Source: Candidatus Xenobium occultum
Lineage (GTDB): Bacteria > Vulcanimicrobiota > Xenobia > Xenobiales > Xenobiaceae
DNA length: 64,000 nt
Assembly: GCA_002423485.1 (NCBI GenBank)
Contig: DIWH01000066.1
Coordinates: 70,193-134,192 of the forward strand
Reading direction: 5' to 3'
How positions within the stretch are numbered: position 1 is the first letter of the stretch; every line of letters starts with the position of its first letter. Positions 18,555-38,292 of the stretch are shown piece after piece. Made by a program: the position numbers and the translations under genes. The notes beneath the pieces were generated by a model, which was given only the letters and a program-made list of their open reading frames with translations, had not been told where the DNA came from and did no database searches.

Positions 18555-22277
<3,723 letters not shown>

Positions 22278-22293
22278 GCGACCAGGCCGGCGG

Positions 22294-24654
22294 ATGGCTG
22301 CGGAGGCGTTGACGATGGACCAGGATCCCGACCGGCTTTTCCCTTTCCCCCTGGATGACTTCCAGAAGGAGGCCATCCGCTCGATCCAGGAGGGGAAGAG
22401 CGTCATCGTGTGCGCTCCGACCGGGGCAGGCAAGACCGTCGTGGCGGAATACGCCGTCAAACAGGCCCTGGCGCGGGGGAAGAGGTGTTTCTACACCACT
22501 CCGCTGAAGGCTTTGTCCAACCAGAAGTTCGGGGACCTGCGTCGCGAATACGGTGAGGAGAACGTGGGTCTGTTGACCGGCGACACCTCGCTCCAGCGCC
22601 ACGCTCCGATCGTCGTGATGACCACCGAGGTCTACCGCAACATGCTGTATGGCACGGTGCTGGGGGACGTGCAGTCCAACCTGGCCCACGTCGAGTCCGT
22701 CATCCTCGACGAGTGTCACTACATGAACGACCCCGAGAGGGGCACGGTGTGGGAGGAGTCGGTGATCTACTCGCCGACCCCCGTGCAGCTCGTGGCCCTT
22801 TCGGCCACCGTGGCCAACGCCGCTGACCTGCGGGACTGGATCGAGGCCACCCACGGTCCGACGGATCTGGTTGTGTCGGATTTCCGCCCGGTTCCCCTAC
22901 GCCATCACTACTATCACGAGGGGGACCTTCATCGTCTGGTCATGGGCAATGGCCGGCTGAATCCGCGGCTGGCCGCCCAGGCCCGCCCGGCTCCCCAGGC
23001 TTTCAACAGGGAGCGCGGACGCTTTCGGGCTCCTCGTCCCCGCCAGGAATACCCCGAGAAGGTCGTCTCCGTCCTGGATCGCGAGGGGATGTTGCCGGCG
23101 ATCTTCTTCCTGTTCTCCCGGAAGAAGTGTGATGAGGCTGCGCGAAGGTCCGACCAGGCCGTCAGCCTCTCGGCCCGGCACCGCCAGGAGTTGCAGGAGG
23201 CGATCGACCAGGCTCTGCTCGAGACACCGTCGCTGGCCGATCAGCCCCAACTCGAGCATCTGCGCAACGGCGTGGCAGCCCACCACGCCGGGCTGCTGCC
23301 CGCCTGGAAGGCCCTGGTCGAGAACCTCTTCCAGCAGGGCCTGATCCAGGTGGTGTACGCTACCGAGACCCTGGCCGCAGGCATCAACATGCCCGCTCGG
23401 ACCACCGTGATCAGCGCCATCAGCAAGTACAGCGATGAGGGGCATCGCATGCTGACGGCCAGCGAGTTCCTGCAGATGTCGGGCCGGGCCGGTCGGCGCG
23501 GGATGGACGTCGTCGGGCACGTGGTGGTGGTGCACCATCCCCTCGAACCCGTCGGGGATGCTGCCCGTCTGGCCATCGCCTCGGCAGATCCGCTCATCAG
23601 CCGCTTCACCCCCAGCTATGGAATGGTCCTGAACCTCCTGCAGCGACACTCCCTGGAGGAATCCCGCCGCCTGGTGGAGCGCTCTTTCGGCCAGTTCGTA
23701 GCCGAACGCGAGAAGGGCCCTCTCTTCGAAGAGGCCGCTCGGCTGCACCGCCAGCTCCTGGAGCTCTCGCGTCCGTTGTGTCCGGGGCCGCTCGGAGACC
23801 TGCCGGCCTGGAAGAAGCTGCGCGAGAAGGCCCGCAGCCTGGCTCGTCAGGCCAAGGCCATGGCGGCCGGCCTGAAGGGCCGGACGGACCCGGTCGCACA
23901 GCAGGCCTTGGAGGACCTCAAGACCGGGCGCGCGCAGGCCCTGGAGTCGGCCAACGCCATGCCCTGTCAGGGATGCCCGGTGCAGGGCGAGTGCTCGCGC
24001 CAGATCCAGTCATGGCGGAGCCTGGACCGTCGCCGCGAGGAGATCGAGCGGGGCATGAAGCGGGCCTCTACTCCCTACTGGAAGCAGTTCCAGGACCTGG
24101 AACGGGTCCTGCGGGCCGCCGGCTACCTGGAAGGGCACGAACCAACCTGGGAGGGGCGTATGGCGGCCTCGCTGCGCGCCACCAACATCCTGCTGTTGAG
24201 TGAGGTGGCCCTGTCAGGGATTCTGGAGACGCTTGAGCCGGTCGAGGTGGCCGGGCTGATGTCCGCCCTGGTGGCCGGCGACACCCGAGCCGTCCCGGAT
24301 GTCGGGATGCGGGTGTCGCGGCGCGCGGAGGAGGCCCTGGCGGAGATCGTCGGGGTCTCGCGCGAGGTGCAGAGACTGCAGGAACGCCACGGGGTGGACG
24401 TGCCGGTGTGGGTCAACCCCGTCTTCGCGGGCCTGACCGAGTTCTGGGCCCGGGGGGCAGATTGGCCCCACGTGAAGGCCTACCTCGGGGTCGACGAAGG
24501 CGACATGGTTCGCGGTCTGCGCCGGGCCCTGGATCTGTGCCGTCAGTTCGCCTTCGCTCCCCAAATGCCCGAGCGCATCGCTGCACTGTGCCACGAGGCG
24601 GCGGCCCTCATGGACCGCGACGAGGTGCACGAGGCCCTGGTCTGGTCGGACTAG
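22294..24654 (+). CDS. Ski2-like DEAD/DEAH-box RNA helicase (HelY-type)
   Basis: Motif I CAPTGAGKT, motif II DECHYM, motif VI QMSGRAGRRG. C-terminal Ski2-type domains. Confidence 0.85.
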   Translation: MAAEALTMDQDPDRLFPFPLDDFQKEAIRSIQEGKSVIVCAPTGAGKTVVAEYAVKQALARGKRCFYTTPLKALSNQKFGDLRREYGEENVGLLTGDTSLQRHAPIVVMTTEVYRNMLYGTVLGDVQSNLAHVESVILDECHYMNDPERGTVWEESVIYSPTPVQLVALSATVANAADLRDWIEATHGPTDLVVSDFRPVPLRHHYYHEGDLHRLVMGNGRLNPRLAAQARPAPQAFNRERGRFRAPRPRQEYPEKVVSVLDREGMLPAIFFLFSRKKCDEAARRSDQAVSLSARHRQELQEAIDQALLETPSLADQPQLEHLRNGVAAHHAGLLPAWKALVENLFQQGLIQVVYATETLAAGINMPARTTVISAISKYSDEGHRMLTASEFLQMSGRAGRRGMDVVGHVVVVHHPLEPVGDAARLAIASADPLISRFTPSYGMVLNLLQRHSLEESRRLVERSFGQFVAEREKGPLFEEAARLHRQLLELSRPLCPGPLGDLPAWKKLREKARSLARQAKAMAAGLKGRTDPVAQQALEDLKTGRAQALESANAMPCQGCPVQGECSRQIQSWRSLDRRREEIERGMKRASTPYWKQFQDLERVLRAAGYLEGHEPTWEGRMAASLRATNILLLSEVALSGILETLEPVEVAGLMSALVAGDTRAVPDVGMRVSRRAEEALAEIVGVSREVQRLQERHGVDVPVWVNPVFAGLTEFWARGADWPHVKAYLGVDEGDMVRGLRRALDLCRQFAFAPQMPERIAALCHEAAALMDRDEVHEALVWSD

Positions 24655-25171
24655 ACTCCTGGAGCGGCTCGGCGGACGGGGGGGAGGGGCAGAGCCACCG
24701 GGTCAGTTCCAGGTCCACGGCGGGCATCGGATACCGAGCCAGCAACCCGGGTTCGGCCCAGGTGATCGCGTCGTGGTCGGGAAGTCCGCGCTGCCTGGCC
24801 TCCTCCGGACCCAGGTCCAGGCCGTTTCGGACCCAGTCCGGCCTGGGATTTCGCGCGCGGACCCGGAAGGCCAGCAGCCTCAGAGGTCGTCCCGAGGGCA
24901 GGTGTCCGCCCACCCGGGCCAGAGGTTCCATCACCTCAACCTCCAGACTCAGCTCCTCGCGGAGTTCGCGAACCAGCGATTCCTCCGGCGTCTCTCGAGA
25001 TTCGACCTTGCCTCCGGGAAACTCCCAGAGACCCCCATGGGTGCGCCCCGGGGCCCGACGGGCCAGCAGGACCCGTCCGTCTTTCAGGATCAGCACGGCG
25101 GCGCTGACCAGCAGCTCTTCTTCCAACAGCCACCTCCCGACTTCGGCTTGCGGGCCAGTTTCTTGTTTCAC
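24608..25171 (-). CDS. NUDIX hydrolase (MutT / 8-oxo-dGTP diphosphatase-like)
   Basis: Nudix box GGKVESRETPEESLVRELREELSLEV. The start is probably GTG near 25171; the ATG ORF extends to 25309 and would overlap the divergent neighbour. Confidence 0.75.
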   Translation of the reverse strand: MKQETGPQAEVGRWLLEEELLVSAAVLILKDGRVLLARRAPGRTHGGLWEFPGGKVESRETPEESLVRELREELSLEVEVMEPLARVGGHLPSGRPLRLLAFRVRARNPRPDWVRNGLDLGPEEARQRGLPDHDAITWAEPGLLARYPMPAVDLELTRWLCPSPPSAEPLQESSPTRPGPRAPRRGP

Positions 25172-25281
25172 GGATTTACCCAGCGAAGGATTCCGCGAGG
25201 TCTCGATGGAAGTCCTGCGTTCGCTGGAGAAGGTGTGGTTGCGCCCCGTTTGGCCACAAAGCGAGACGCCTTCTGAAAAGG

Positions 25282-27951
25282 ATGGCTTTGAGAAACAGAG
25301 CGATTGCATTCAAGTCTGTCCTGGGACTCCTGCTGCTGAGCCTGGTCCTGGCGCTGCCTGCCGACGCCAACCAGGAGCAGGCCCGGAAATTCATCCAGCG
25401 CGCCGAGGCGCTCGCGCAGAAGAAGCGCATCCCCGAAGCGACCAAGGCCATCCTGAGCGCCGTCGACGCCGCTCCGGACTGGGACGTCCCCCGAGCCGCC
25501 CTGGCCCGGTTCTACGTGGGGATCGCCAATCGGGACGGGGCCGCCAAGGCTTGGCGTGAGGCCATCGAGCGTTCTCCCAAGAACCCCGCCTATCACCAGG
25601 GCCTGGCGGAGGTCCTGACCTTGAAGGGAGACCTCGAAGGGGCGGCGGCGGCCTGGAAGATCGTGGCGGAGCTGCGCCCGAAGGATTCGAATTCTCGTTA
25701 CAACCTGGCTCAGATCGCCCTGGAGCAAGGGGACCTCGACAGCGCGGAGACCCAACTTTCGCTGGCCGAGAAGCTCGAACCCGGGGCTTTCAAGTTCTCG
25801 CTGCTGCAGGCTCGCATCGATCTGATCCGCAAGGACTACCGGGCTGTGCGCGGTCGCCTGGAGGCCTTGCTTCCCCTGATCCCCGAGCAGCACAAGGAAC
25901 TGCGCGAGCAGGTCCAGTCCCTGCTCGATCAGGCCCATCAGGAGAGCAAGGACACCTGGGTGCAGCGCGGGATCTACTTCGGGATTCCGCTGGTCTTGAT
26001 CGTGGCGGGTTTCGTCACCTGGAAGATCACCCGATGGGTTGAGATCAAGGCGCCGCCCTCCCGGCTGGACCCCAGCACCAACGAATCGATCTGCCGCTTC
26101 GCCCTGACCCATGTCGCGGCCTTGACGGGTCTGCCTCGGTCCTTGTGCTGGGTTGTCAGCCTGGATGGGCGGCGCATGGAGCTGGCCGCCTCCGAGCTGA
26201 TGAAGAACCCGGGCCCCCTGGCGCGACGAGACCTGGTTCGGGCGGACCTGGCGCGCTGGCTCAAGGAGCACGGGCCGGTCCCCTTCCTCTACAAGCTCGA
26301 ATCCCAAGAGCGCCGATTCCTGGACGCCTTCCCGGATCTGGTGAAGAACCTCGAGGGGGTCGAGATCAACGTGGGGGTGCCCCTGGTCTGGAAGGGCGAG
26401 TTCCGTGGCTTGTTGCTTCTGGGCCGCAGTCGTTCGGCGGGTGGCCGCGACCTGCGCGGCCGCTTCGAGAAGAACTCCAGCAGGGTCCAGGGGATCGCCG
26501 AGCAGGCGGCCCAGGCCTTGGATGAGCTGCGCAAGGAACATCTGAAGATCTATGACGTCGAGACCGGCGTGCACAACCGCGCCTATTTCGACGTCTACCT
26601 GTCCGAAGCCGTCCAGACCAGCCGGTCCACCCGGTTGCCCTTGACGCTGCTGATCATGCGGATGGATGCCTTTGACGAAATCCAGGAGAAGTATGGAGAC
26701 AAACTCTCTGGGGAAATCCTCGAGCAGATGCTGGACGCGCTCTTCGACCGTCTGCGCGAGGAAACCAAGACGGTCCTGTTCCGTCTGGAGGGTGGCGTGT
26801 TTGCCCTGGTGGCCCTGGAGCGTGGCCTGCGTGAGGCGCCCTCCCTGGCTCAGCATCTGAAGGCCGCCATCGACGGGTTGAAGATTTCGCGGAACCTGCC
26901 TCGGCCCACGGGCTGCGTGGCCTTCGGAGTCTACCCCGACCACGCCGACGACTGCAACGCCTTGCGGCGGGTCACCATGCGGGCCTTCCGCGACGCGGTC
27001 TACCTGGAGGGGAACCGGGTGCTGGAGGCCGAGCGCGGTGGCGCTTTTGATCCCGACGAAGAGGTTGAGGCTGGAATCCGGGTGGCCGGGAGGCGCGCCC
27101 TGACCGAGGATCCTCCGCCGGCCCAGATTTCCCCTCCATCGGGTCCGGCTCCCTTCCAGCCCTTCACCACCGCCCGACGGTCCGAATCCCCTGCTCCGGA
27201 GGGAGGGGTCAGCGGCACCTTCCCCCAGTCGCCAGAGGACGAGGGCGCTCCGGCAGAGCCGGCCGGCGAGAAGAAGTCCAGGTGGCCCGCTTCCAGGGGC
27301 TCCTCTTCCGAGGCTCCAGGGCGCCTGACCCTGGGCAACTCGCTGCGCCAGGGGCGTTCGGCAGCGCCCCCGGTCCAGCCCATTCCGGTCCCCCAAGCTC
27401 CCATCCCGCCTCCCGGCGCTGCTCCCAGGCCGACATCACCAGGGCTGGAATCGGATCTGTCCGACCTGGCCGATCTGGGGATCGACCCCGAGACCCAGTT
27501 CTGCCTGCAGCCCACCTTCGAAGACCTGGCCGAGTTCGAGGTCCGCTCGGGGCTGGATTCGGGGCAGACCTGCAGCATTCTGTACATCCGACTGGTCAAT
27601 CTCGACGAGCTCCGCTCCGGGGGCGACGAGGAGTCTCTCAAGATTCGACGGAATCTGGCTTCGCTGCTGCATGCCTTCCTGCGCGACGAGGTGGACGTCC
27701 CCGGTCTCATGGGGGCCGATGATTTCGTCCTGCTGCTGACTGGAACGCCCCTGAAGACGGCGGCCAGCCAGGCGGATCAGGTGGCCATGACCGTGAGGAA
27801 CCTGCAGGTTGCCGGACAGGTCGCGATTCCCGCCATCGGAGTCGCCGCTTCCAGCCCGGAGGACCCCGTGGAGGGGCCGGAACTGATCCAGCGCGCGCGC
27901 GCGGCTGCCGCCAAGGGACCTGGAGTGAACCAGTACGGAGAGGAATCCTGA
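25282..27951 (+). CDS. Signal peptide - TPR repeat (periplasmic) - TM helix - two degenerate GGDEF-like domains; putative c-di-GMP-related sensor/receptor membrane protein
   Basis: N-terminal signal LLLLSLVLALPADA, TPR-like helices, TM segment IYFGIPLVLIVAGFVTW. GGDEF-like block DVETGVHNRAYFDVYL...RLEGGVFALVAL (GGDEF replaced by EGGVF). Second block GADDFVLLL. Confidence 0.6.
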   Translation: MALRNRAIAFKSVLGLLLLSLVLALPADANQEQARKFIQRAEALAQKKRIPEATKAILSAVDAAPDWDVPRAALARFYVGIANRDGAAKAWREAIERSPKNPAYHQGLAEVLTLKGDLEGAAAAWKIVAELRPKDSNSRYNLAQIALEQGDLDSAETQLSLAEKLEPGAFKFSLLQARIDLIRKDYRAVRGRLEALLPLIPEQHKELREQVQSLLDQAHQESKDTWVQRGIYFGIPLVLIVAGFVTWKITRWVEIKAPPSRLDPSTNESICRFALTHVAALTGLPRSLCWVVSLDGRRMELAASELMKNPGPLARRDLVRADLARWLKEHGPVPFLYKLESQERRFLDAFPDLVKNLEGVEINVGVPLVWKGEFRGLLLLGRSRSAGGRDLRGRFEKNSSRVQGIAEQAAQALDELRKEHLKIYDVETGVHNRAYFDVYLSEAVQTSRSTRLPLTLLIMRMDAFDEIQEKYGDKLSGEILEQMLDALFDRLREETKTVLFRLEGGVFALVALERGLREAPSLAQHLKAAIDGLKISRNLPRPTGCVAFGVYPDHADDCNALRRVTMRAFRDAVYLEGNRVLEAERGGAFDPDEEVEAGIRVAGRRALTEDPPPAQISPPSGPAPFQPFTTARRSESPAPEGGVSGTFPQSPEDEGAPAEPAGEKKSRWPASRGSSSEAPGRLTLGNSLRQGRSAAPPVQPIPVPQAPIPPPGAAPRPTSPGLESDLSDLADLGIDPETQFCLQPTFEDLAEFEVRSGLDSGQTCSILYIRLVNLDELRSGGDEESLKIRRNLASLLHAFLRDEVDVPGLMGADDFVLLLTGTPLKTAASQADQVAMTVRNLQVAGQVAIPAIGVAASSPEDPVEGPELIQRARAAAAKGPGVNQYGEES

Positions 27952-28409
27952 TGTCCCCTGGTTTCTTGCTGGCGGTTCAGCTCATCCTGGGGGGGACGGC
28001 ACTGATCGGCCTGGTCTGGTTCTGGATGGCAGCTCGGCAACGCCGTTTTGCCGTCCTGCCTTTGGGAATCCTGCTGGTGAGCCTTGCCCTGAGCGTGGTC
28101 GCCGCAGGTTGGCGCAGCCGCGCCGTCGCCGCGTTCGAGTGCGCCGCCGGGTTGCAGCGCCTGGGTCTGGCCATGGAGTTGTATGCCCAGAACAACCAGG
28201 GGACCCCCGCGCGGTCCCTGGACGATCTCGTCCCGTTCTACTTCGACGAGCTCCCCGTCTGTCCGTTGGAGGCAGGATCCCTGGCCACCCTGGAGCGGGG
28301 GGACTCCAGCTTCACCCTGGTCTGTGCGGGCCGGCACCGCGGTCTGGGAGGAACGCCCGAAGGATTCCCTCGCTACACGCCCCGTCAGGGCGCCCAGGTG
28401 CGTCCCTGA
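27951..28409 (+). CDS. Small membrane protein with pseudopilin/DUF1559-like segment; coupled to the upstream gene (TGATG)
   Basis: Two TM helices, then ECAAGLQRLGLAMELYAQNNQGTPARSLDDLVPFY, which resembles the conserved N(L)KQIGLALHNY..G.FP segment of prepilin-like proteins. No canonical prepilin cleavage motif. Confidence 0.5.
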   Translation: MSPGFLLAVQLILGGTALIGLVWFWMAARQRRFAVLPLGILLVSLALSVVAAGWRSRAVAAFECAAGLQRLGLAMELYAQNNQGTPARSLDDLVPFYFDELPVCPLEAGSLATLERGDSSFTLVCAGRHRGLGGTPEGFPRYTPRQGAQVRP

Positions 28410-28522: not shown

Positions 28523-29458
28523 CTAGAACTCCCCGCCCCGCTGGCTTCCCGCCACGTTCCAGGTCAGCCCCGAAAGCAGTCGGTCACCCTCGTTCAGGTT
28601 GACCTGCATCTCCAGCTCGGCTTTGCGGCCGGGCAGTCTGTAGCGATAACTGCGCGTCCAGCCATCGCTGCTGAACCAGCGCCAGCCCTCCTCAAGCCGG
28701 GGTTGGACCTTTCCCTCGGGCAGGGCGTCGCGAAACTGCTTGATCTCGGTCTTCACGGCATCCGGGGACAGGCTGGCCTGCAGGCCCGGTGAGGCGACCT
28801 TGCCATACAGCTCCTCTCCCTTTCCGGCTTGGATCAGCTCCAGGATGCGGGCCACCTGCTTCTGGTCCGCCTCGTCCGCGCGGCTCATCAGCGAGCCCAG
28901 GCGTGAGGAGCGCAAGGTCAGCGTCTGGACCCGCATCTCCTGGCCCTGGGGCGCCAAAGCCACGTAGGCCAGCACCTGACCCTGGCTGGCGCGCACCCGC
29001 CACCAGCTCTCCTGAAGCTTCGCCCCAAGCTGGTCCCTCTCCATCTGGCCGGTTGCGGGCGAGGGGTTGATGCCCAGGGTGTGCAGGTCTTCGGGGGACT
29101 CGAAATCTCCTCGGGAAACCTGCTGGATCTCTTCCAGGGGGCCGATGGGAAGGGTCAGGTTCTCGATCAGGGCGCTCTGGATGTCCTCGACCCGGGTGTC
29201 CTTCTGGCGGGATTCCAGCAGGCACTCGGTGTGGAAGGCCCGGGCCTGGTTGCTCCACAGCCGGGCCAGGGCCTTGCGGGCGGCCTGGTCGACCTCCGGG
29301 GACAGGGCCTCAGGGGCGGGGCTCTGCGGGGGAGCCACCGGCAGCACCGGCGAAGGGCTCCCTGTCGAGGCCGGTGGGAAGGGAGCTTGAGGCTTGGGGC
29401 CACAGGCCAGGGCAGTCAACAACAAGACCAGGCAGAGGGCGGCAAGATGACGCATGGG
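28523..29458 (-). CDS. Hypothetical lipoprotein
   Basis: Start MRHLAALCLVLLLTALACGPK (lipobox LAC). The upstream part of the ORF-track entry is R/P-rich junk. Function unknown. Confidence 0.55.
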   Translation of the reverse strand, partial: PMRHLAALCLVLLLTALACGPKPQAPFPPASTGSPSPVLPVAPPQSPAPEALSPEVDQAARKALARLWSNQARAFHTECLLESRQKDTRVEDIQSALIENLTLPIGPLEEIQQVSRGDFESPEDLHTLGINPSPATGQMERDQLGAKLQESWWRVRASQGQVLAYVALAPQGQEMRVQTLTLRSSRLGSLMSRADEADQKQVARILELIQAGKGEELYGKVASPGLQASLSPDAVKTEIKQFRDALPEGKVQPRLEEGWRWFSSDGWTRSYRYRLPGRKAELEMQVNLNEGDRLLSGLTWNVAGSQRGGEF

Positions 29459-30436
29459 GTGGATTTCGAGCCGGGGGAGGACCCCCCCTGCCCCCGGCTC
29501 CGGGTGGTCTTCGCCGGGATGGACGGCCGCTTCTCCACCGTGCCCCTGCAGTTTCTGGCCCGGCGCCATCACCTCGTGGGGGTGATCCACTCCCAGCCCC
29601 GGGCGGTTCGTCGGGGATGGCTGGTGGACTGGGCGCGGGCTGGCGCGGGGCGGGGGAACCTGCGGCGCTTCGCGGAGTCTCTGGGCTGCCCGTTCCTCTC
29701 TGCGGGGCGCTCGGCGGGTCCCGCGCTGGCGGCCTTCCTGCACCAGGCTCGGGCCGACCTCCTGTGCCTGTCCAACTTCTCATTCCTGCTCCCCCCAAAG
29801 ATCCTGGAGATCCCGCGCCAGGGAGCGATCAACCTGCACCTGTCGCTGCTTCCGCGCCACCGGGGCCCGAACCCCTGGTTGTGGATGTTCCACGACCAGG
29901 ACCGGATCGGGGGGGTCAGCGTCCACGTCGTCGAGGAAGGGGAGGACTCCGGCCCGCTTCTGGGGACCTTGGAGCACGAGATTCCGGAGGGGATCACGGC
30001 CGGCGACCTGGCGGATGAGGTCCTGCCCCGGGCAGCCGCGCTGCTGGCCGACGTGGTGGACGCCCTGGCCTGCGGGAACGTGGCGCCGGTGCCCCAGGCC
30101 TGCCCGGACGGGCTGCGCCGGGCCCGCTTCGTCCCCCCCGGTGAGGCCCTGATCGACTGGCAGACCTGGCCGGCCTCCCGGGTCAGCCACTTCCTGCGGG
30201 GGGCCAGCCTGTGGTATGAACCCTTTCCTCCGATCCCCGGCTTCGTCCGGGTGTACGGACCGGCCCTTCCCGGGAAGCCGGGGGATCCCCCCGGGACCCT
30301 GCGCCAGGCGGCGCGGACGGGCTGGATCGCCTGTTGCGACGGGCGGGTCCCCTTCCGCCTTCAAGCCGTGCCTCGCGAGCTCTGGCGGCTGGGTCTGCCC
30401 CTGGCCCTGGGGGCGGGGTTGTGGGCTTTGGCCTGA
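29450..30436 (+). CDS. Formyltransferase-family protein (Fmt/PurN-like catalytic domain)
   Basis: RVVFAGMDGRFSTVPLQFL (N-terminal Rossmann-like) and HLSLLPRHRGPNP (formyltransferase HxSLLPxxRG motif). The start ATG at 29450 overlaps the 5' end of the divergent lipoprotein gene; an alternative GTG lies at 29462. Confidence 0.65.
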   Translation, partial: THGVDFEPGEDPPCPRLRVVFAGMDGRFSTVPLQFLARRHHLVGVIHSQPRAVRRGWLVDWARAGAGRGNLRRFAESLGCPFLSAGRSAGPALAAFLHQARADLLCLSNFSFLLPPKILEIPRQGAINLHLSLLPRHRGPNPWLWMFHDQDRIGGVSVHVVEEGEDSGPLLGTLEHEIPEGITAGDLADEVLPRAAALLADVVDALACGNVAPVPQACPDGLRRARFVPPGEALIDWQTWPASRVSHFLRGASLWYEPFPPIPGFVRVYGPALPGKPGDPPGTLRQAARTGWIACCDGRVPFRLQAVPRELWRLGLPLALGAGLWALA

Positions 30437-30445
30437 GCTCCGGTT

Positions 30446-32023
30446 TCAGTCGACGCTGGGGGCCTCCTCCTGGTAGCGCAGCACCCGGAACTTCCCGATG
30501 GTCGGGAAGTGGGGTGGGGGGCTGGAGGCCAGGTTGGGGTCGTAGGTTGAGTCCACGGTGACCCCGTTCAGGACCGTTCCCTCGACGCTGTCGACCGAGG
30601 CCCAGGCCGGCTTGTACCCCATCATCAGTCCTCCGTACAGCCGGATCCGACCAGGGGTTCGGGTCTCCCAGGAGTCGACGTAGAAGCCCCCCTCCGACCC
30701 TTTGGTCCCCGCCAGGATGGCGGCGTAGATGTCCGTCGGGGGATTGACCGTCTGGGCGACCGAGGTGGGGATCCTCACATTGTAGGCCACCAGGCCCAAA
30801 GAGTCCCGCCCGCCTTCGGGGGTCTGCCCGACCGGGGTGTCGGCCCGGGTCAGGGACCCGCCCAGGACGATCTCCTTGTTGGCCGCCATGTCCACCGCCA
30901 CGGTCCGCTTGCCCTTGTTGACGCCTTGGAGGTCCCGGATGTTTCCGGTGCCATAGATCAGGCCATTGGTCAGCCCGGAGTGGACCGTGAAGGTCCCGTC
31001 GGGCTTGTAGAGGATGGTGCTGCCGCGCAGGACGGGGTTTCCGTCCGGGTCGGTGATCGCGGTGTCGGTGACCTCCACGACCTTGGTGGTCGAATGGCCT
31101 TGTTTGATGGTGACGCTGCGGTTGCCCCCCTCCTCGACGGCCAGGACCATCGAGTCCACGTCGCCCACCACCGTCAGTCCGCCGGACAGGCCTTCCGAGC
31201 TGGCATCCTGCCCCAGGTGGACCCCCCGGGTGGAAGGCGTGACGGAGCTCTGCCCCTGGGCTGCGCGGGCCAGGGCCCCGGAGTCGGTCGGCAGCTCGAT
31301 GCGCCGCGCTCCGGTGCGCAGCGATTCCCGGCCCCCGCGGAAGATCTTGCGGTAGCGCTCCGGGAGGGGGTTCCCCTGGCTGTCGTAGGGAGGGGTTCCC
31401 TGGTAGGCCACCCCGTCGGGGGTGTCGTGGGATTCGACTGTTGTCACCTCGCTCTCGAAGGTCGGAGTCAGGTTCTGGTCATAGAAGCCCGGAGGGACCA
31501 GGATGCGGATCCTGCTGTTGGAGTGGAAGGGACCATCGATGTGATAGTTCGAGGTGGTGATCACCAGGTCCGAACGCCGCTGGTCCTCGAACCAGGCGTA
31601 GCGGGCAAAGGTCTCCTGCCGGGCCAAAGCCCGCACCGCCCGGTAGGCGACTCCGTCCAGGCTGGCCAGCGAGTGGATCTCGTAGACCCGGATGGTGCCC
31701 GTGCCCCGGGGAGGGGTCTGGGGATCGGCCGTCAGGGTGGCCTCCCAGTTCCAGTCTCCGGTCTCGCCCCGCAGGACGTACGAGGTGGCGTCGTCGGGGA
31801 GCGGGGTCTCACCGCGGCTGACGCGGTCCTCGATGAAGGCCAGGGCGTGCAGGACGCCGGAGTCTGCGGCCAGGAAGGCGGCGGTCTCCAGGCGGTTCCG
31901 GCCGGCGGCCCTCAGCTCCAGGGGCAGCAGATCCAGAAGCGCCAAGGCCAGGAAATTCAGGATGACCAGGAAGAAGATGGCCAGCAGCAGCACGGTTCCG
32001 CGGCGTCTTCCGGGCCTCTTCAT
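30446..32023 (-). CDS. PilX/ComZ-like large minor pilin (type IV pilus/pseudopilus tip-associated protein)
   Basis: N-terminal hydrophobic helix plus PilX_N-like ...RNRLETAAFLAADSGVLHALAFIE. 525 aa, Thr/Gly-rich beta-rich body. Last gene of the pseudopilin operon. Confidence 0.6.
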   Translation of the reverse strand: MKRPGRRRGTVLLLAIFFLVILNFLALALLDLLPLELRAAGRNRLETAAFLAADSGVLHALAFIEDRVSRGETPLPDDATSYVLRGETGDWNWEATLTADPQTPPRGTGTIRVYEIHSLASLDGVAYRAVRALARQETFARYAWFEDQRRSDLVITTSNYHIDGPFHSNSRIRILVPPGFYDQNLTPTFESEVTTVESHDTPDGVAYQGTPPYDSQGNPLPERYRKIFRGGRESLRTGARRIELPTDSGALARAAQGQSSVTPSTRGVHLGQDASSEGLSGGLTVVGDVDSMVLAVEEGGNRSVTIKQGHSTTKVVEVTDTAITDPDGNPVLRGSTILYKPDGTFTVHSGLTNGLIYGTGNIRDLQGVNKGKRTVAVDMAANKEIVLGGSLTRADTPVGQTPEGGRDSLGLVAYNVRIPTSVAQTVNPPTDIYAAILAGTKGSEGGFYVDSWETRTPGRIRLYGGLMMGYKPAWASVDSVEGTVLNGVTVDSTYDPNLASSPPPHFPTIGKFRVLRYQEEAPSVD

Positions 32024-32027
32024 CGGG

Positions 32028-32591
32028 TCACCTCGTCGCGTAGTAGGGGATCATGACGGTGGTCTGCACGCGGTACTCCTGGTCCCGTGTGTTCCCTCCG
32101 ACATCCCGGAGGGGTGCCTGGACCACCACGGTGATCTTGACCGAGTTGGGCGAAAGCACCTCCAGGCCAAGCCAGTGGATGTTGCGGGCCAGCACCAGGT
32201 CGGCTTCGCCGGGTGTGTCGGCGTTGGTGGTGACGAGTCCTGTGCTCTGCTCGAAGAGGATCCACTTCTCGTGGTAGGTGGGAGACCGGGGGTCGAAGGG
32301 TTCGGCTGGAATCGTGTAGGCCACCTTGGAGGTCATCGGGAGCAGGTCGTCCGGAGTGTAGATGGCGTCCTGGGTGTCGGTGGCCGGGACGGCCTGGATC
32401 AGCCGCGGGGTCAGGCGCTGCATGGTCTGGCGGGCCCTTTGTTGGAGGGCCACGCGCCCCGTCCCGGTTGAGTAGGCAGACTGCGAGGCGACGTAGATCC
32501 GGGCCAGGATCATGCCCAGCAGCGCCAGGATCGCCGTGCTGATCACCACCTCGACCAGGGTCAGGCCGGGCTGACGCGTGCGTGGGGTCAT
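32028..32591 (-). CDS. Prepilin-type N-terminal cleavage/methylation domain protein (minor pilin, PilV/PilW/GspJ-like)
   Basis: QPG|LTLVEVVISTAILALLGMILA is the classic class-III signal (G-F/L-T-L-x-E). The ORF-track entry (402 aa) carries a non-protein-like 215-aa N-extension. The start overlaps the stop of the upstream pilin. Confidence 0.75.
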   Translation of the reverse strand: MTPRTRQPGLTLVEVVISTAILALLGMILARIYVASQSAYSTGTGRVALQQRARQTMQRLTPRLIQAVPATDTQDAIYTPDDLLPMTSKVAYTIPAEPFDPRSPTYHEKWILFEQSTGLVTTNADTPGEADLVLARNIHWLGLEVLSPNSVKITVVVQAPLRDVGGNTRDQEYRVQTTVMIPYYATR

Positions 32592-33097
32592 GGCCGCCGG
32601 TGGTGGCCGACCATTTCCACCTCCCGAACCTGGTCCTTCTCCATCCACTGGACGCTGACGCGGATCTCGGCGAGGTTGGAGCGATAGTCTGATCCCCCCG
32701 AGCCGGGCACCCGTCCGACCAGGATGCGGCGTCGGAACCCCGTGTGGGGTGGGATGTCGTGGGTGAAGGGAGCGGCTTCGAGGGGGCTGAGTTGCTCCCA
32801 CGAGGTCTTGTCGGTGTCGTTGAGCCCCGAGGTGGAGGGGGGGGGAAGGCTGTCGTAGAGGAAGGGCAGGTTTCGCACCCGGATCAGCTCCACCAGTTGC
32901 CGGCTGTAGTTCACCGCTTCCGAGAGTCGGGCGCTGTGGTTGGTCGAGTGCAGTCCGTAGGCAAAAGAGGCGAAGACCCCCAGGATGCCGATGGCCAGGA
33001 CGGCGATGGCAACAGCCAGCTCGACCTGACTGAACCCCCCCTCCCGCTGTCGTCCAGGAGGCAGGGGCGCCCCGAAGATTCTGCGTTGGAGGCTCAC
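32588..33097 (-). CDS. Prepilin-type N-terminal cleavage/methylation domain protein (minor pilin, FimT/GspH-like)
   Basis: REGG|FSQVELAVAIAVLAIGILGV prepilin motif. 169 aa. Confidence 0.75.
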   Translation of the reverse strand: MSLQRRIFGAPLPPGRQREGGFSQVELAVAIAVLAIGILGVFASFAYGLHSTNHSARLSEAVNYSRQLVELIRVRNLPFLYDSLPPPSTSGLNDTDKTSWEQLSPLEAAPFTHDIPPHTGFRRRILVGRVPGSGGSDYRSNLAEIRVSVQWMEKDQVREVEMVGHHRRP

Positions 33098-33601: not shown

Positions 33602-34960
33602 GTGACGGCCCTGTCTTCCATCCAGAAAACCTATATTCTCGACACCAGCGTCCTGCTTCATCGGGCAGAATCGCTCTTCTCCTTCGGGGACAACCAGGTC
33701 GTGCTCCCCATCGTCGTGTTGGACGAGATTGACAAGTTCAAGCGCGGGACGACCGAACTGAACCGCGCCGCTCGCGTGGTCATCAAGTCCCTGGACCAGA
33801 TTCGGGAGCGCGGGGACCTCGACAAGGGGGTCCTCCTGGAGAACGGCGGGACCCTGGTCATCAACATCAACGACCGGGACGCCACCAAGCTCCTGCCGCC
33901 GGGCTTCGAGCCTTCCAACGACAACCGGATCCTGGCCACGGCCCTGGCCGTCCAGAAACGCCGTGAGGGGCCGGTCATCCTGGTCTCCAAGGACATCAAC
34001 ATGCGGGTCAAGGCCCAGGCCTTGGGCTTGATGGCCGAGGATTACCGCTACGACCAGATCGTCGACATCGACGAGATGTTCACCGGGCATCGGGATCTGG
34101 TCGTCCCTGAAGACGTGATCGCCGATCTGTATCGGGATCGCTCGGTTCCGCTCCATCGGGCCGGGGAACTGTCCCGTCCCCTGGCCCCCAACGAGTTCGT
34201 CATGCTGACCGGGGGGGCTCCCTCCTCACCGACCGCCCTGACCCGCTACAACCAGGAGGCGGGCCTCCTGAACCGTCTGCGCGAGGTCCGCTTCGACATC
34301 TGGGGCATCCGCCCGCTGAACCGCGAACAGCAGTATGCCTTCGAGGTCCTCCTGGACGACGACGTCCAATTGGTCACCTTGGCCGGCAAGGCGGGCACCG
34401 GGAAGACCATCCTGGCCATCGCCGCAGGTCTGCAGAAGGTGGTCAACGAGAAGGTCCATCGCCGCCTGGCCATCTACCGGCCGGTGATTCCCATGGGCCG
34501 CGACATCGGCTTCCTTCCGGGGACCGAGCAGGAGAAGCTCTCGCCCTGGATGCAGCCCATCATGGACAACCTGGAGTTCCTGCTCAACGAGCACGGGGGC
34601 GGAAAGAAGGGCAGCACCGGACGGGCCGACTACCTGTTGGATTCCAACCTGCTGGACATCCGCGCTCTGACCTACATCCGCGGGCGAAGCCTTCCCCAGC
34701 AGTTCATCATCATCGACGAAGCCCAGAACCTGACGCCCCACGAGGTGAAGACCATCGTGACCCGGGCCGGGGAGGGCACCAAGGTCGTCTTCACCGGTGA
34801 CCCCTACCAGATCGACCACCCCTACCTGGACTCGACCTCCAACGGCCTGACCCACCTGGTCGAGCGTTTCCGGGACCACGCCATCGCCGCGCATGTCACC
34901 TTGTCCAAGGGCGAGCGCTCGAAGCTGGCCGAGCTGGCTTCGGTGGTCATGGAGGAGTAG
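33602..34960 (+). CDS. PhoH2-type protein: N-terminal PIN domain fused to PhoH-like ATPase
   Basis: PIN-like YILDTSVLLHRA...VLPIVVLDEIDKFK. Walker A GKAGTGKT, IIIDEAQNLT, and the PhoH C-terminal region. Confidence 0.85.
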   Translation: MTALSSIQKTYILDTSVLLHRAESLFSFGDNQVVLPIVVLDEIDKFKRGTTELNRAARVVIKSLDQIRERGDLDKGVLLENGGTLVININDRDATKLLPPGFEPSNDNRILATALAVQKRREGPVILVSKDINMRVKAQALGLMAEDYRYDQIVDIDEMFTGHRDLVVPEDVIADLYRDRSVPLHRAGELSRPLAPNEFVMLTGGAPSSPTALTRYNQEAGLLNRLREVRFDIWGIRPLNREQQYAFEVLLDDDVQLVTLAGKAGTGKTILAIAAGLQKVVNEKVHRRLAIYRPVIPMGRDIGFLPGTEQEKLSPWMQPIMDNLEFLLNEHGGGKKGSTGRADYLLDSNLLDIRALTYIRGRSLPQQFIIIDEAQNLTPHEVKTIVTRAGEGTKVVFTGDPYQIDHPYLDSTSNGLTHLVERFRDHAIAAHVTLSKGERSKLAELASVVMEE

Positions 34961-34997
34961 CCACTCCCTGGCGGATTCAGGTGAGGGGAGCCGCATC

Positions 34998-35933
34998 ATG
35001 TCCTGTCGGATCTGGGGCCTGGTGGCCCTTCTGGTTGCGGTGGCCTGTGCACCCCAAGAGGCGGACCGGGTTCCTTCGCAGGGGCCGGTCCGCCTCGTGC
35101 GTCTGGCCACCTGGAACCTGCATGACCTCTTCGACGCCCGGGACGACCCCTATGACGACGAGGTGCGCACCCGCGCGCGCCTGGAGGCCGACCTGGAGGC
35201 CAGGGCCCGGGTCCTGCGCGAACTGGACGCCGATCTGCTGGCCGTGCAGGAGGTCGAGACCGGCGAACTCCTGCAGGAGCTGGCCCAGAGGACGGGCTAC
35301 GAGCAGGTGGTCCTCTTGGAAGGCAACGACGTCCAGCGCGGTATCGACGTCGGCCTCTTGAGCCGGGTCCCCTTGCAGGGCTCGCGAACCCACCTGGCCG
35401 ATCGCCTTCCCAGGACCCGCGGCGCCCCCCGGGATTCCCGTTTCTCGCGCGACTGCCTGGAGGTCCACGTGGCGGTTCCGGGGGGGCTGGTGCTGCTGAT
35501 CAACCACTTCAAGAGCCAGGCCTTCGGCGGTCGGCGCGCGGAGGCCCTGCGCCTGGCCCAGGCCGGCAGGGTCCGCGAGATTGCCCTGGGGCTGGCTGAG
35601 GTCCCGCTGGCCGTCCTGGGTGACCTCAACGCCGATCCCGATTCGCCCTCGCTGGCTCCCCTGAAGCAGCCCCCCTTCCTGGACCCCTTGGAGGCTCTGC
35701 CTCGGGAGGGGCGGGTGACCTGGCGGAAGGGGCGCCGCGACTCGGCCCTGGACTACATCCTGCTCAACCCGGCCCTGGCCCGGCGGCTCGTCCCCGGGTC
35801 GGTCCGGATTCTCGAAGGTGAGGCCGTCCGGGTGGCCAGCGACCATCGGCCGGTCCTGCTCGACCTGTGGCTCCCGGATTGGGAGGCTCAGGAAGGACCG
35901 CCTTCCCAGGCGGGCGAAGGCGCCCCTCCATGA
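34998..35933 (+). CDS. Endonuclease/exonuclease/phosphatase (EEP) family lipoprotein
   Basis: Signal plus lipobox LVALLVAVACAP. EEP motifs ATWNLHDLFD, LAVQEVE, LGDLNADPDSP, SDHRPV. Confidence 0.7.
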   Translation: MSCRIWGLVALLVAVACAPQEADRVPSQGPVRLVRLATWNLHDLFDARDDPYDDEVRTRARLEADLEARARVLRELDADLLAVQEVETGELLQELAQRTGYEQVVLLEGNDVQRGIDVGLLSRVPLQGSRTHLADRLPRTRGAPRDSRFSRDCLEVHVAVPGGLVLLINHFKSQAFGGRRAEALRLAQAGRVREIALGLAEVPLAVLGDLNADPDSPSLAPLKQPPFLDPLEALPREGRVTWRKGRRDSALDYILLNPALARRLVPGSVRILEGEAVRVASDHRPVLLDLWLPDWEAQEGPPSQAGEGAPP

Positions 35934-37177
35934 GCCTGCGCGCCCGCTTCTTCCTGTTCTTCCTGGCCCTGGTCCTGCTTCCGATCCCGGCCCGTCCGGA
36001 GGCCGGTCCGAAGGCCGGCAGCCTGCCCGCCCTTCAAGCCGAGGTCCAGCGCCTTCGGGAGTTGGAGTTCCTGCGCCCGGTCCAGGCCCTGGAGATGTCG
36101 CTGGAGCAGGCCGGCCAGGAGGTCCGCCAGATGCTGGGACGCGACCTGGGGAATCCGACCACCCAGGGGCGCGAGGTCTTCCTGCAATCCTTGGGCCTGC
36201 TCCCCGAGGGGACCAGCCTGGAGGCCTCGCTGGCCTCCCTCTTCGGCGAGCAGATCCGCGGCCTGTACGACCCCCGCAAGCAGGTCTTCGTGGTCGTCCG
36301 GGATGCGCCGGACCCTCTGACCTCCTCCGGTCTCCCGGCGGTCGTGGGTCTGGACCTGGCCGAGCTCTACACCCTGCACGAACTGGTCCACGCCCTGCAG
36401 GATCAGCACTTCGGTCTTCTGGCCCTGGAGGAACGCACCCGGGGGCGCTTCGACGCCTTGATGGCTCTGCGGGCCGTGCTGGAGGGAGACGCCAACCTGG
36501 TCATGTTCCAGGCGGCCGCCCGCCGGATGGGGCTGGACGCCGGGATCCTGGTCTCCTTGCTGGGCTCGGGCCCGGCGCCGAGTCTTCCCGGGTTGGACGC
36601 CTATCCTCAGTTCCAGGAGGCCCCCCGCTTCCTCCAGGAGTTCTTGACCATGCCCTACTTCCAGGGCATGGGCTTCGTGGCCGCCCTGCATCGGGCCGGG
36701 GGATGGCCGAAGGTGGATGCGGCCTTCCGCGACATGCCCGCCTCGACCGAGCACATCCTGCACCCCGAGAAGTTCCTGGGCGGAGAGGATCCCCCGCTGC
36801 GGGTGGACCTCTCGGCCCTGCCCGAGAGGTTCGGCTCCCACTCGCTGTTGAGCGAGGACACGGCTGGCGAGTTCCTGATCCGCGTGTGGGGCGAAGAGAA
36901 CCTGGGAACCGAGCTGGGTCGGGAGGCGGCCGCCGGATGGGGAGGGGATTCCTGGCGGGTCTACTCCGCCGACCAGAGCCGATTCTTCCTGTGGGTCACC
37001 GCCTGGGATACCGAGGCGGATGCCCGAGAGTTCGAAGCGCTGGCCCGCAAGGCCCGGGCCGCGCACCCCGACCGGATCGAGCGCCACGGCGCTCGTGTCC
37101 TGGTGATTTCAGGCGCGCCCGGAGACCTGGTCCAGGTCGTCTCCAGCGCTGCCGGGAAGGCGAAGATCCATCCATGA
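35930..37177 (+). CDS. Secreted HExxH zinc metallopeptidase-like protein (MA clan, DUF-type)
   Basis: Signal peptide FFLFFLALVLLPIPARPEA and YTLHELVHALQDQH (HExxH). ATG overlaps the upstream stop (ATGA). Confidence 0.55.
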   Translation: MSLRARFFLFFLALVLLPIPARPEAGPKAGSLPALQAEVQRLRELEFLRPVQALEMSLEQAGQEVRQMLGRDLGNPTTQGREVFLQSLGLLPEGTSLEASLASLFGEQIRGLYDPRKQVFVVVRDAPDPLTSSGLPAVVGLDLAELYTLHELVHALQDQHFGLLALEERTRGRFDALMALRAVLEGDANLVMFQAAARRMGLDAGILVSLLGSGPAPSLPGLDAYPQFQEAPRFLQEFLTMPYFQGMGFVAALHRAGGWPKVDAAFRDMPASTEHILHPEKFLGGEDPPLRVDLSALPERFGSHSLLSEDTAGEFLIRVWGEENLGTELGREAAAGWGGDSWRVYSADQSRFFLWVTAWDTEADAREFEALARKARAAHPDRIERHGARVLVISGAPGDLVQVVSSAAGKAKIHP

Positions 37178-38292
37178 CCGAGACCCGCTTCGACAGCCTG
37201 ATCCCCGACTACATCCAGCGCCTTGAGCCCTACGTGGCCGGAAAGCCCATCTGGGAGGTCCAGGAGGAGTTCCAACTGCAGGAGGTCGTCAAACTGGCCT
37301 CCAACGAGAACTCGCTGGGGCCCTCTCCCCGGGCGATCCAGGCCGTCCAGGACAGTCTGGTCGACATCCACCGCTACCCGGATACCGGGGGGCTGCGCCT
37401 CCGCCAGGCGCTGGCGGATCTGTATGACCTGAAGGTCGAGAACGTGGTCCTGGGCAGCGGCTCGGAAGGCATCATGTCCTACATCATGCGGACCTTCCTG
37501 GATCGCGAGGACGAGGTCCTCACCGCGGACGCCACCTTCGTGGGTTTCCAGGTGATGGCCCGGGCCCGGGCCGTGCAGCCGGTCTCGGTGCCGCTGAAGG
37601 ACTACCGCTTCGATCTGGAGGCCCTGGCCGATCGGATCACCGAGCGCACGAAGATCGTCTACCTGTGTAATCCCAACAACCCCACGGGGACCTTCTTCAC
37701 CAAGGCCGAGTTCGATCGCTTCCTCGAGCGGCTCCCTTCCCGGATCCTGGTGATCCTGGACGAGGCCTACTACGAGTTCGCCTGCGACCATCCCGATTTT
37801 CCCGACTCGATGAAGTACCGTCACGACCAGGTGATCACCCTGCGCACCTTCTCCAAGGCCTATGGCCTGGCCGGGGTCCGCATCGGCTACGGCTTCGCCC
37901 ACGACTTCCTGATCCGCAACCTGCACAAGATCAAGCTGCCCTTCGAACCCGGCATCCCCGCCCAGGCGGCCGGTCTGGGTGCCCTGGAGGACCGCGAGTT
38001 CCTGGCCCGCACCCAGGAAATGAACCGCCAGGGCCTGCCCTTCTTCTACAAGCACTTTGACCGTCTGGGATTGGAGTACCGCCCCTCGGCGGCCAACTTC
38101 ATCCTGGGAATCCTGAAGTCCAAGGATCAGGTGTCGGCCCTGTACGGCGAGATGCTGCGCCGGGGCGTGATCGTGCGCCCCCTGGAGCGCTTCGGCCTGC
38201 CCCACTGCTTCCGCGTCACCGTGGGCACCGAGTCCGAGAACCGGCGCTGCGTCGAGGTCCTGGAGGAGGTCCTGCCGGCCGTTCGCGGGTGA
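37174..38292 (+). CDS. hisC: Histidinol-phosphate aminotransferase
   Basis: Class-II aminotransferase fold. NPNNPTG, PLP-lysine region RTFSKAYGLAGVRIGY. Start overlaps the upstream stop (ATGA). Confidence 0.85.
   Translation: MTETRFDSLIPDYIQRLEPYVAGKPIWEVQEEFQLQEVVKLASNENSLGPSPRAIQAVQDSLVDIHRYPDTGGLRLRQALADLYDLKVENVVLGSGSEGIMSYIMRTFLDREDEVLTADATFVGFQVMARARAVQPVSVPLKDYRFDLEALADRITERTKIVYLCNPNNPTGTFFTKAEFDRFLERLPSRILVILDEAYYEFACDHPDFPDSMKYRHDQVITLRTFSKAYGLAGVRIGYGFAHDFLIRNLHKIKLPFEPGIPAQAAGLGALEDREFLARTQEMNRQGLPFFYKHFDRLGLEYRPSAANFILGILKSKDQVSALYGEMLRRGVIVRPLERFGLPHCFRVTVGTESENRRCVEVLEEVLPAVRG

Follow-up and report, generated by a model that had tools for sequence, protein, structure and literature searches.

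We analysed a window of 64,000 nucleotides from Candidatus Xenobium occultum (assembly GCA_002423485.1, contig DIWH01000066.1, positions 70,193 to 134,192 of the forward strand), in which two adjacent genes encode a large protein with two degenerate GGDEF domains and a small pseudopilin-like membrane protein. All positions given here are those of the window. The large gene (25282..27951, plus strand; 889 amino acids [aa]) was recognised as an open reading frame (ORF) with Pfam TPR and GGDEF matches and with homologues. The small gene (27951..28409, plus strand; 152 aa) is an ORF whose start overlaps the stop of the large gene as TGATG, and the pair is a conserved two-gene module, probably with translational coupling. 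An earlier account of this DNA, made from its letters alone (the sequence-only reading), had placed the same two ORFs here, with TPR repeats and one transmembrane (TM) helix in the 889-aa protein, the TGATG overlap and two hydrophobic helices in the 152-aa protein, all of which we confirmed with the ORF list, Pfam and hydropathy.

The 889-aa protein consists, in order, of a signal peptide, a TPR region, a TM helix, a GAF-like domain, a first GGDEF domain (GGDEF-1), a Pro-rich linker and a second GGDEF domain (GGDEF-2), and we hold this order, together with the rest of the descriptive account, with high confidence. The probable Sec signal peptide (residues 1-29, ending ...LALPADA|NQ; 25282..25368, plus strand) coincides with a hydropathy segment at residues 5-31. 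Its [AV]xA-type end is kept in the homologues of the family alignment, and cleavage would be expected at this place. The TPR region (residues ~30-215; 25369..25926, plus strand), which is predicted to be extracytoplasmic, matched Pfam TPR_16, TPR_17, TPR_2, TPR_11 and TPR_19 over residues ~30-205. In the AlphaFold2 (AF2) model it has a predicted local distance difference test (pLDDT) score of ~90 and forms at least 10 helices. It is the least conserved folded part of the protein, with 24-48% identity in distant relatives. The resemblance of this region to PilW, Tgl and PrsT in NCBIfam was generic and far under the cut-offs, and we did not count it in favour of a pilus connection. A single TM helix follows at residues 227-250 by hydropathy (25960..26031, plus strand), where AF2 models a helix at residues 205-248.

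A GAF-like domain is tentatively assigned to residues 268-413 (26083..26520, plus strand) from a sub-threshold Pfam match: GAF (PF01590) covered model positions 3-133 of 133 in the window protein, with 14.8 bits against a cut-off of 22.4 (E 0.044), and was matched in 3 of 6 family members with a best E of 2.6e-4. A profile search of PDB sequences with this region gave no match, and hhalign against a thin profile of two GAF domains gave a probability of 0.5%. The Pro/Ala/Ser/Gly-rich linker (residues 591-727, 137 aa; 27052..27462, plus strand) is predicted to be disordered from its composition (29 Pro and 17 Ala among 137 residues), and the AF2 model shows no secondary structure there. Among homologues it measures from ~130 to ~430 aa, the longest being that of homologue P0007, in which ~430 aa with repeated KPEL(L/R)SS(E/G)(T/S)RPAVP units separate the GGDEF folds; linker length is thus evidently free to vary. 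The full-length AF2 model has a pLDDT of 51, with ~90 in the TPR region and values below 50 elsewhere, the GAF-like region being poorly modelled. A Pfam scan of the 889-aa protein at E<=1 returned nothing besides GGDEF and TPR families, and the NCBIfam matches, far under the equivalog cut-offs throughout, were limited to GGDEF at domain level and to generic TPR models. The architecture in the sequence-only reading was right, but it lacked the signal peptide, the GAF-like domain and the 137-aa linker, as well as the widespread nature of the small protein's soluble module described below.

Two degenerate GGDEF domains

Pfam GGDEF (PF00990) matched the 889-aa protein in two stretches (E 3.1e-21, 76.3 bits against a cut-off of 23.8). 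GGDEF-1 (residues 420-590; 26539..27051, plus strand; signature EGGVF) aligned to DosC, WspR and TpbB in the PDB at E ~1e-8, and GGDEF-2 (residues 728-889; 27463..27948, plus strand; signature GADDF, with RDEVD) was assigned by a profile match to FimX and by residue scoring. In pairwise HMMER alignments, RLEGGVF of GGDEF-1 fell column for column on RYGGDEF of DosC and RYGGEEF of WspR, and GADDF of GGDEF-2 fell on GGEEF or on GDSIF of FimX. The degenerate GGDEF domain of FimX (3hva) was the best solved match to GGDEF-2, and a profile of six GGDEF-2 sequences matched this entire domain at E 4.4e-5. The two domains of the large protein are paralogous (E 5e-4).

Residues were scored in two alignments, the first setting both domains of four family members against five canonical GGDEF domains and a WspR fragment, and the second containing ten family members at 24-98% identity per region. 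The reference positions in PleD, which we take to be D327, K332, N335 and D344, were mapped via WspR and the canonical sequences. GGDEF-1 carries Arg, Asp, Gln and Gly at these four positions, and GGDEF-2 carries Arg at D327, Arg at N335 and Leu at D344. The metal- and guanine-binding residues are lost from both domains in 10/10 family members, whose signatures read [ED][GNT]GVF in GGDEF-1 and [GN]x[DE]D[FY] in GGDEF-2; since the same losses occur in all ten, a sequencing error is excluded. That the protein is an active diguanylate cyclase, only with unusual signatures, is extremely improbable. In its favour one could cite the high significance of the fold match and the start motif DxxTGxxNR, largely retained in GGDEF-1, but EGGVF lacks both acidic signature residues and, in both domains of all ten members, Arg has replaced the first metal-binding Asp and neither the guanine-binding Asn nor the guanine-binding Asp is left. 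Judging from these residues, neither GGDEF domain is a cyclase, and GTP is unlikely to bind at the old active site of either one. The dead enzyme proposed in the sequence-only reading was therefore borne out, as alignment to WspR and canonical cyclases yielded EGGVF and GADDF, with no GG[DE]EF and with the catalytic residues lost.

In both domains, the residue that replaces the first metal-binding Asp is an invariant Arg, found in MRMD at residues 458-460 (26653-26661) and in IRL at residues 767-769 (27580-27588). This Arg might pair with those acidic residues that are left in the signature and so take the place of the metal ion.

We also examined the inhibitory site (I-site), where canonical domains, and degenerate GGDEF receptors of the PelD/PopA type, carry RxxD with its Asp five residues ahead of the signature. 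No RxxD was found in GGDEF-1, in which these positions read ETKT and MAFFT aligned an Arg only with a 2-residue insertion. In GGDEF-2, a related R-[DE]-x-[VL]-D motif (RxxxD) is invariant in 10/10 members, down to 30% identity; in the window protein it reads RDEVD, with D805 at the canonical position -6 and R801 at -10 rather than -9. From the sequence, a role as a receptor for cyclic di-GMP (c-di-GMP) appears possible only via this shifted RxxxD of GGDEF-2.

These losses are also what would be seen if the protein were a structural hub of the FimV/HubP type that binds no ligand, with the GGDEF folds and the linker serving only for docking or oligomerisation, the small protein acting as an accessory anchor and no second messenger taking part. 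Indeed, the nucleotide-binding residues at the old active site are all replaced in both domains, the canonical RxxD is not present, the disordered linker is long (130 to 430 aa), and the Arg at the metal-binding Asp could close the pocket. A ligand-free scaffold of this kind is a serious rival to the relay considered below, even if we find it unlikely overall. In the ten-member family alignment, conservation is highest in the cytoplasmic block formed by the GAF-like domain and GGDEF-1, above that of the TPR region, and the RxxxD motif is invariant to 30% identity. Both features are more usual for ligand sites or specific interfaces than for generic scaffolds. The high conservation of this block thus fits binding of a ligand or partner rather than decay. 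GAF domains usually bind small molecules, which also speaks against a ligand-free hub, with the reservation that the GAF call here is weak.

A tethered pseudopilin-like partner

The 152-aa protein starts with a two-helix membrane hairpin (27957..28112, plus strand) made of TM1 (residues 3-27), the loop ARQRRF and TM2 (residues 34-54), as seen by AF2 and by hydropathy (residues 1-28 and 31-56). A GspG-like, pseudopilin-fold domain follows (28122..28406, plus strand), which is predicted to be extracytoplasmic and in which C64, C104 and C125 are invariant. In the AF2 model (pLDDT 77), helices span residues 3-27 and 35-81, and the second helix packs on four short strands, so that the protein shows the long N-terminal helix packed on an antiparallel sheet that defines the pilin fold. 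A Foldseek search of the PDB with this model returned a type IV pilin as top match, with an E of 0.5 that is below significance. The three Cys are invariant in 8 close homologues, which also share an RH.G.GG..FPR motif. Since these 8 and many distant homologues keep the motifs, the 152-aa ORF is a real gene.

Sequence comparisons gave no direct significant match. Searches of Pfam and NCBIfam at E<=1, with N_methyl, T2SSG, GspG and DUF1559 included, returned nothing for the 152-aa protein, nor did a search of PDB sequences, and a 30-sequence family profile reached the PDB GspG structure 2kep only at E 0.99. A motif scan did not find the prepilin motif G|F/M-x-x-x-E in the 152-aa protein, and it did find prepilin-like sites elsewhere in the window. 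The residues before TM2 read RQRRFAVLPLG, with neither Gly-1 nor Glu5. Because it has no prepilin peptidase site, the protein cannot undergo the processing and polymerisation of a pilin. The short RQRR loop should be cytoplasmic, which would place both termini of the protein outside. Taken together, the fold and the family context support a pseudopilin-like nature of the 152-aa protein. The sequence-only reading had arrived at a pseudopilin-like protein without a cleavage site from the stretch LGLAMELYAQNNQGTP...LVPFY; the fold, the family context and the motif scan upheld this view, and the expected kinship to the N_methyl and DUF1559 models was not recovered.

Two known families help to define the small protein. 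Compared with GspG/EpsG, the major type II secretion pseudopilin (PDB 4lw9; T2SSG), it has no prepilin leader and no Glu5, and its extra N-terminal TM helix forms a hairpin; moreover, it carries three conserved Cys and a C.G..H...P(R/Q)Y tail and reaches no pilin model. The likeness to the DUF1559/H-X9-DG prepilin-type proteins is confined to a stretch of ~35 residues after the membrane helix (C.xNLKxxxxAxxxY), whereas the remaining ~230 positions are unmatched and H-X9-DG is not visible by eye in the C-terminal tail.

We then searched 1.84 billion representative sequences with a profile of the soluble domain and obtained 2047 relatives at E<=1e-3, including 399 at E<=1e-10. A survey of 157 proteins, comprising the best 150 relatives listed and the close homologues, defined a Cys-containing, GspG-like module of ~95 aa that is present in 2-4 copies in 117/157 proteins. 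The module is fused to Ser/Thr kinases (P0046), DUF3352 (P0043, P0050), CHAT (P0058) and cytochrome-c-like regions, and it matched no model of its own in Pfam or NCBIfam. Two relatives exceeded the Pfam T2SSG (PF08334) cut-off of 21, namely, P0048 with 31.6 bits and P0043 with 28.4 bits. Other relatives showed weak matches over the same stretch to DUF1559 or to GspG (TIGR01710), those to GspG being far under the cut-off and those to DUF1559 (Pfam SBP_bac_10) covering only profile positions 3-36 of 268. P0148 and P0180 are bona fide prepilins with N_methyl above the gathering score, and other relatives retain a decayed ...LAAILVPNF... helix. A signal peptide, lipobox or TM segment precedes the first module in 116/157 proteins, with leaders in P0052 and P0056, and one Ser/Thr kinase relative has the kinase, three TM segments and then the modules. 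This arrangement indicates that the domain is most likely extracytoplasmic.

Conservation of the pair and its neighbours

Full-length homologues of the large protein were found in seven cases, at 55-92% identity and all in metagenome-assembled genomes, and further relatives have 30-52% identity. UBP9, the class in question, has been handled as a basal class of Candidatus Eremiobacterota (10.1101/534180). In the close clade, the entire region is syntenic, including the genes for MetH, helicase, NUDIX hydrolase, the pair, lipoprotein, formyltransferase and the pilin-type proteins, so that adjacency there says little. More distant loci were reached via stand-alone homologues of the small protein from the search of representatives. 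At L007, L008, L009/L010 and L012, a large protein of the same architecture, with 30-57% identity and degenerate signatures, is encoded directly upstream of the small gene. The two genes are adjacent, and mostly overlapping, at L004, L005, L007, L008, L009, L010 and L012; start-stop coupling is kept at L004, L005, L007 and L009, and a 2-nt gap separates the genes at L012. At L009, the genes upstream of the pair differ.

Downstream of the pair, the window encodes a lipoprotein of 310 aa (MRHLAALCLVLLLTALAC...; 28523..29455, minus strand), the C-terminal 245 residues of which had no match in Pfam or NCBIfam searches, and a formyltransferase of 329 aa (29447..30436, plus strand) that was assigned by Pfam Formyl_trans_N (E 1.7e-20) and synteny and matched the fmt, ArnA and PurN models only far under their cut-offs. 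Homologues of the lipoprotein occur at the same place at L007, L009, L010 and L012. At L007, L009 and L012, where contigs are long enough, the pair is followed by the lipoprotein homologue on the other strand and then by the formyltransferase, and at L010 the lipoprotein homologue lies beside the pair. The formyltransferase is 53-70% identical in relatives and far better conserved than the pair.

Beyond the formyltransferase lies a pilin-type cluster (30446..33097, minus strand), and the presence of such genes downstream on the other strand is thus as the sequence-only reading had described it. The cluster is headed by a 525-aa protein (30446-32023, minus strand) with a hydrophobic N-terminus that is PilX-like by eye and for which Pfam and NCBIfam searches gave no match, and it further contains two proteins matching Pfam N_methyl (32028-32591 and 32588-33097, minus strand). 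The cluster lies by the pair at L004, L005 and L009 and is absent beside it at L007 and L012, so that the association is clade-specific. A homologue of the 525-aa protein follows the formyltransferase only in the closer clade and at L009, where its C-terminal part is 62% identical. At L007 and L012 (30% identity), the formyltransferase is instead followed by unrelated genes, for a secreted protein or a YkuD-type transpeptidase. The unit that is conserved comprises the pair, the lipoprotein and the formyltransferase, without the pilin operon.

These data bear directly on the proposal of the sequence-only reading that the pair is a c-di-GMP-responsive regulator of pilus or pseudopilus function. 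Spelled out, the pair would act on the neighbouring minor-pilin genes (type IV pilus or pseudopilus), with the dead GGDEF domains as receptors and the small protein as a pilus component or decoy. Control of type IV pili by degenerate GGDEF proteins is known, FimX being an example, and the FimX GGDEF domain is the best PDB match of GGDEF-2, which itself retains the I-site-like RxxxD; moreover, the partner has a pilin fold, and the cluster lies 2 kb off on the other strand and is retained beside the pair at three further loci. However, the proposal rested on the neighbouring minor-pilin genes, and these are replaced by unrelated genes at L007 and L012, while in the closer clade synteny spans the whole region and leaves the adjacency little weight. 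In addition, GGDEF-1 has no I-site, and genes for a pilus ATPase, platform or secretin were not found in the annotated part of the window, from 22 to 42 kb. A regulator of the adjacent pilin genes is therefore weakly supported and, in our judgement, improbable, and the sequence-only interpretation as a whole is partly supported.

The remaining genes around the pair are of diverse kinds. Upstream, MetH, a methionine synthase that depends on cobalamin, is encoded at 18555-22277, a DEAD/DSHCT-type helicase at 22240-24654, and a NUDIX hydrolase within 24608-25309 on the minus strand. The start of the lipoprotein gene (29455, minus strand) and that of the formyltransferase gene (29447, plus strand) leave their 5' ends apparently overlapping by 9 bases (29447-29455), and the same tight divergent layout is seen at L004. 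Beyond the pilin-type genes are a PIN-PhoH ATPase (33602-34957) and an Exo_endo_phos nuclease/phosphatase (34893-35930), followed further on by a class I/II aminotransferase (within 35818-38289) and a surface protein with Cu_amine_oxidN1 and Big_6 (38381-40057, minus strand).

A possible relay across the membrane

We regard it as about an even call that the large protein, with its transmembrane helix and dead tandem GGDEF domains, and its tethered pseudopilin-fold partner form a complex that acts as a LapD-type relay. The large protein would be an inner-membrane pseudoenzyme, with the TPR region as a protein-binding module outside and the GAF-like domain and the two GGDEF folds inside. An uncleavable helical hairpin would anchor the small protein in the membrane, with its GspG-type domain and the three conserved Cys exposed on the outer face. 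The two proteins may assemble in a stoichiometric complex in which the TPR module holds the pseudopilin-like domain. A ligand or partner on the cytoplasmic GAF-like and GGDEF-fold domains could then alter binding by the outer TPR/pseudopilin-like assembly, or, alternatively, the signal could run the opposite way, from outside to inside. The invariant RxxxD of GGDEF-2 would be the best candidate for a site binding a c-di-GMP-type ligand. What the data show is the domain layout, the degenerate residues, the fold of the partner and the retention of the pair; in the relay reading, we infer the topology, the physical interaction, the ligand and the direction of the signal.

LapD of Pseudomonas fluorescens is an inner-membrane inside-out c-di-GMP receptor with dead domains that holds or releases a periplasmic partner. 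It is the closest working analogy to the pair, in which protein binding outside, a relay domain in the cytoplasm and dead domains of the c-di-GMP type would likewise be combined. The resemblance of the GGDEF region to the NCBIfam LapD model did not go beyond the domain level (E 3e-9; 35.8 bits, cut-off 1020), and no Pfam match to EAL, HAMP or LapD_MoxY_N was obtained in the 889-aa protein. LapD differs in that it binds c-di-GMP at its EAL domain, whereas the large protein of the pair has TPR repeats outside, a GAF-like relay and two GGDEF folds; furthermore, the partner of LapD is a protease, whereas the partner here is a pseudopilin-fold protein.

PelD of Pseudomonas aeruginosa combines a membrane anchor, a GAF domain and a degenerate GGDEF domain that acts as a receptor, c-di-GMP being bound at a canonical RxxD I-site. 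The large protein has a like succession of membrane anchor, tentative GAF-like domain and degenerate GGDEF domain. It differs from PelD in that GGDEF-1 has no RxxD, while PelD has neither a TPR region nor a second GGDEF domain, and no pel genes lie near the pair. Assignment to PelD was rejected, as the PelD-specific Pfam families were unmatched at E<=1 and the GAF-adjacent GGDEF domain has no I-site. FimX, whose degenerate GGDEF domain resembles GGDEF-2, lies in the cytoplasm, has the layout REC-PAS-GGDEF-EAL and uses its EAL domain to bind c-di-GMP, whereas REC, PAS and EAL are missing from the 889-aa protein. Thus, the large protein does not belong with LapD, PelD or FimX, because it has no EAL, no HAMP and no canonical I-site.

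Several observations weigh against the relay. The RxxxD spacing in GGDEF-2 is unlike the RxxD of known I-sites. The GAF assignment is under threshold and was backed by neither the PDB profile search nor hhalign, and the full-length AF2 model is trustworthy for the TPR region only. Finally, at L011, a 2-kb contig, a stand-alone homologue of the small protein has no large gene upstream.

A more specific version of the relay can be put forward tentatively, and we consider it unlikely in its full extent. The pair may be a new type of inside-out or outside-in switch in the cell envelope, in which the dead tandem-GGDEF receptor would sense a cytoplasmic nucleotide through RxxxD or the GAF-like domain and the TPR region would control a non-polymerisable, tethered pseudopilin. 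More broadly, the module would then be an undescribed extracytoplasmic sensor or adaptor derived from pseudopilins. A literature search returned no paper that joins a degenerate GGDEF protein with a pseudopilin partner, the term "tandem GGDEF" being used there for CmrA and other GGDEF-EAL proteins.

Effectors and scaffolds built on catalytically dead GGDEF proteins are already well known. To this class the large protein contributes an unusual architecture and, in both domains, the exchange of the metal-binding Asp for Arg, and no new principle. The more useful lead is its partner, a pseudopilin-fold domain that has no prepilin signal and serves as a fixed extracytoplasmic module, wired here to a signalling-type protein and fused elsewhere to kinases. 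This non-processed GspG-like module is widespread and apparently undescribed. If this view is true, pilins would have been reused as sensor or adaptor domains, and the pair would offer a way into the envelope signalling of Candidatus Eremiobacterota (class UBP9), which are known from metagenomes only.

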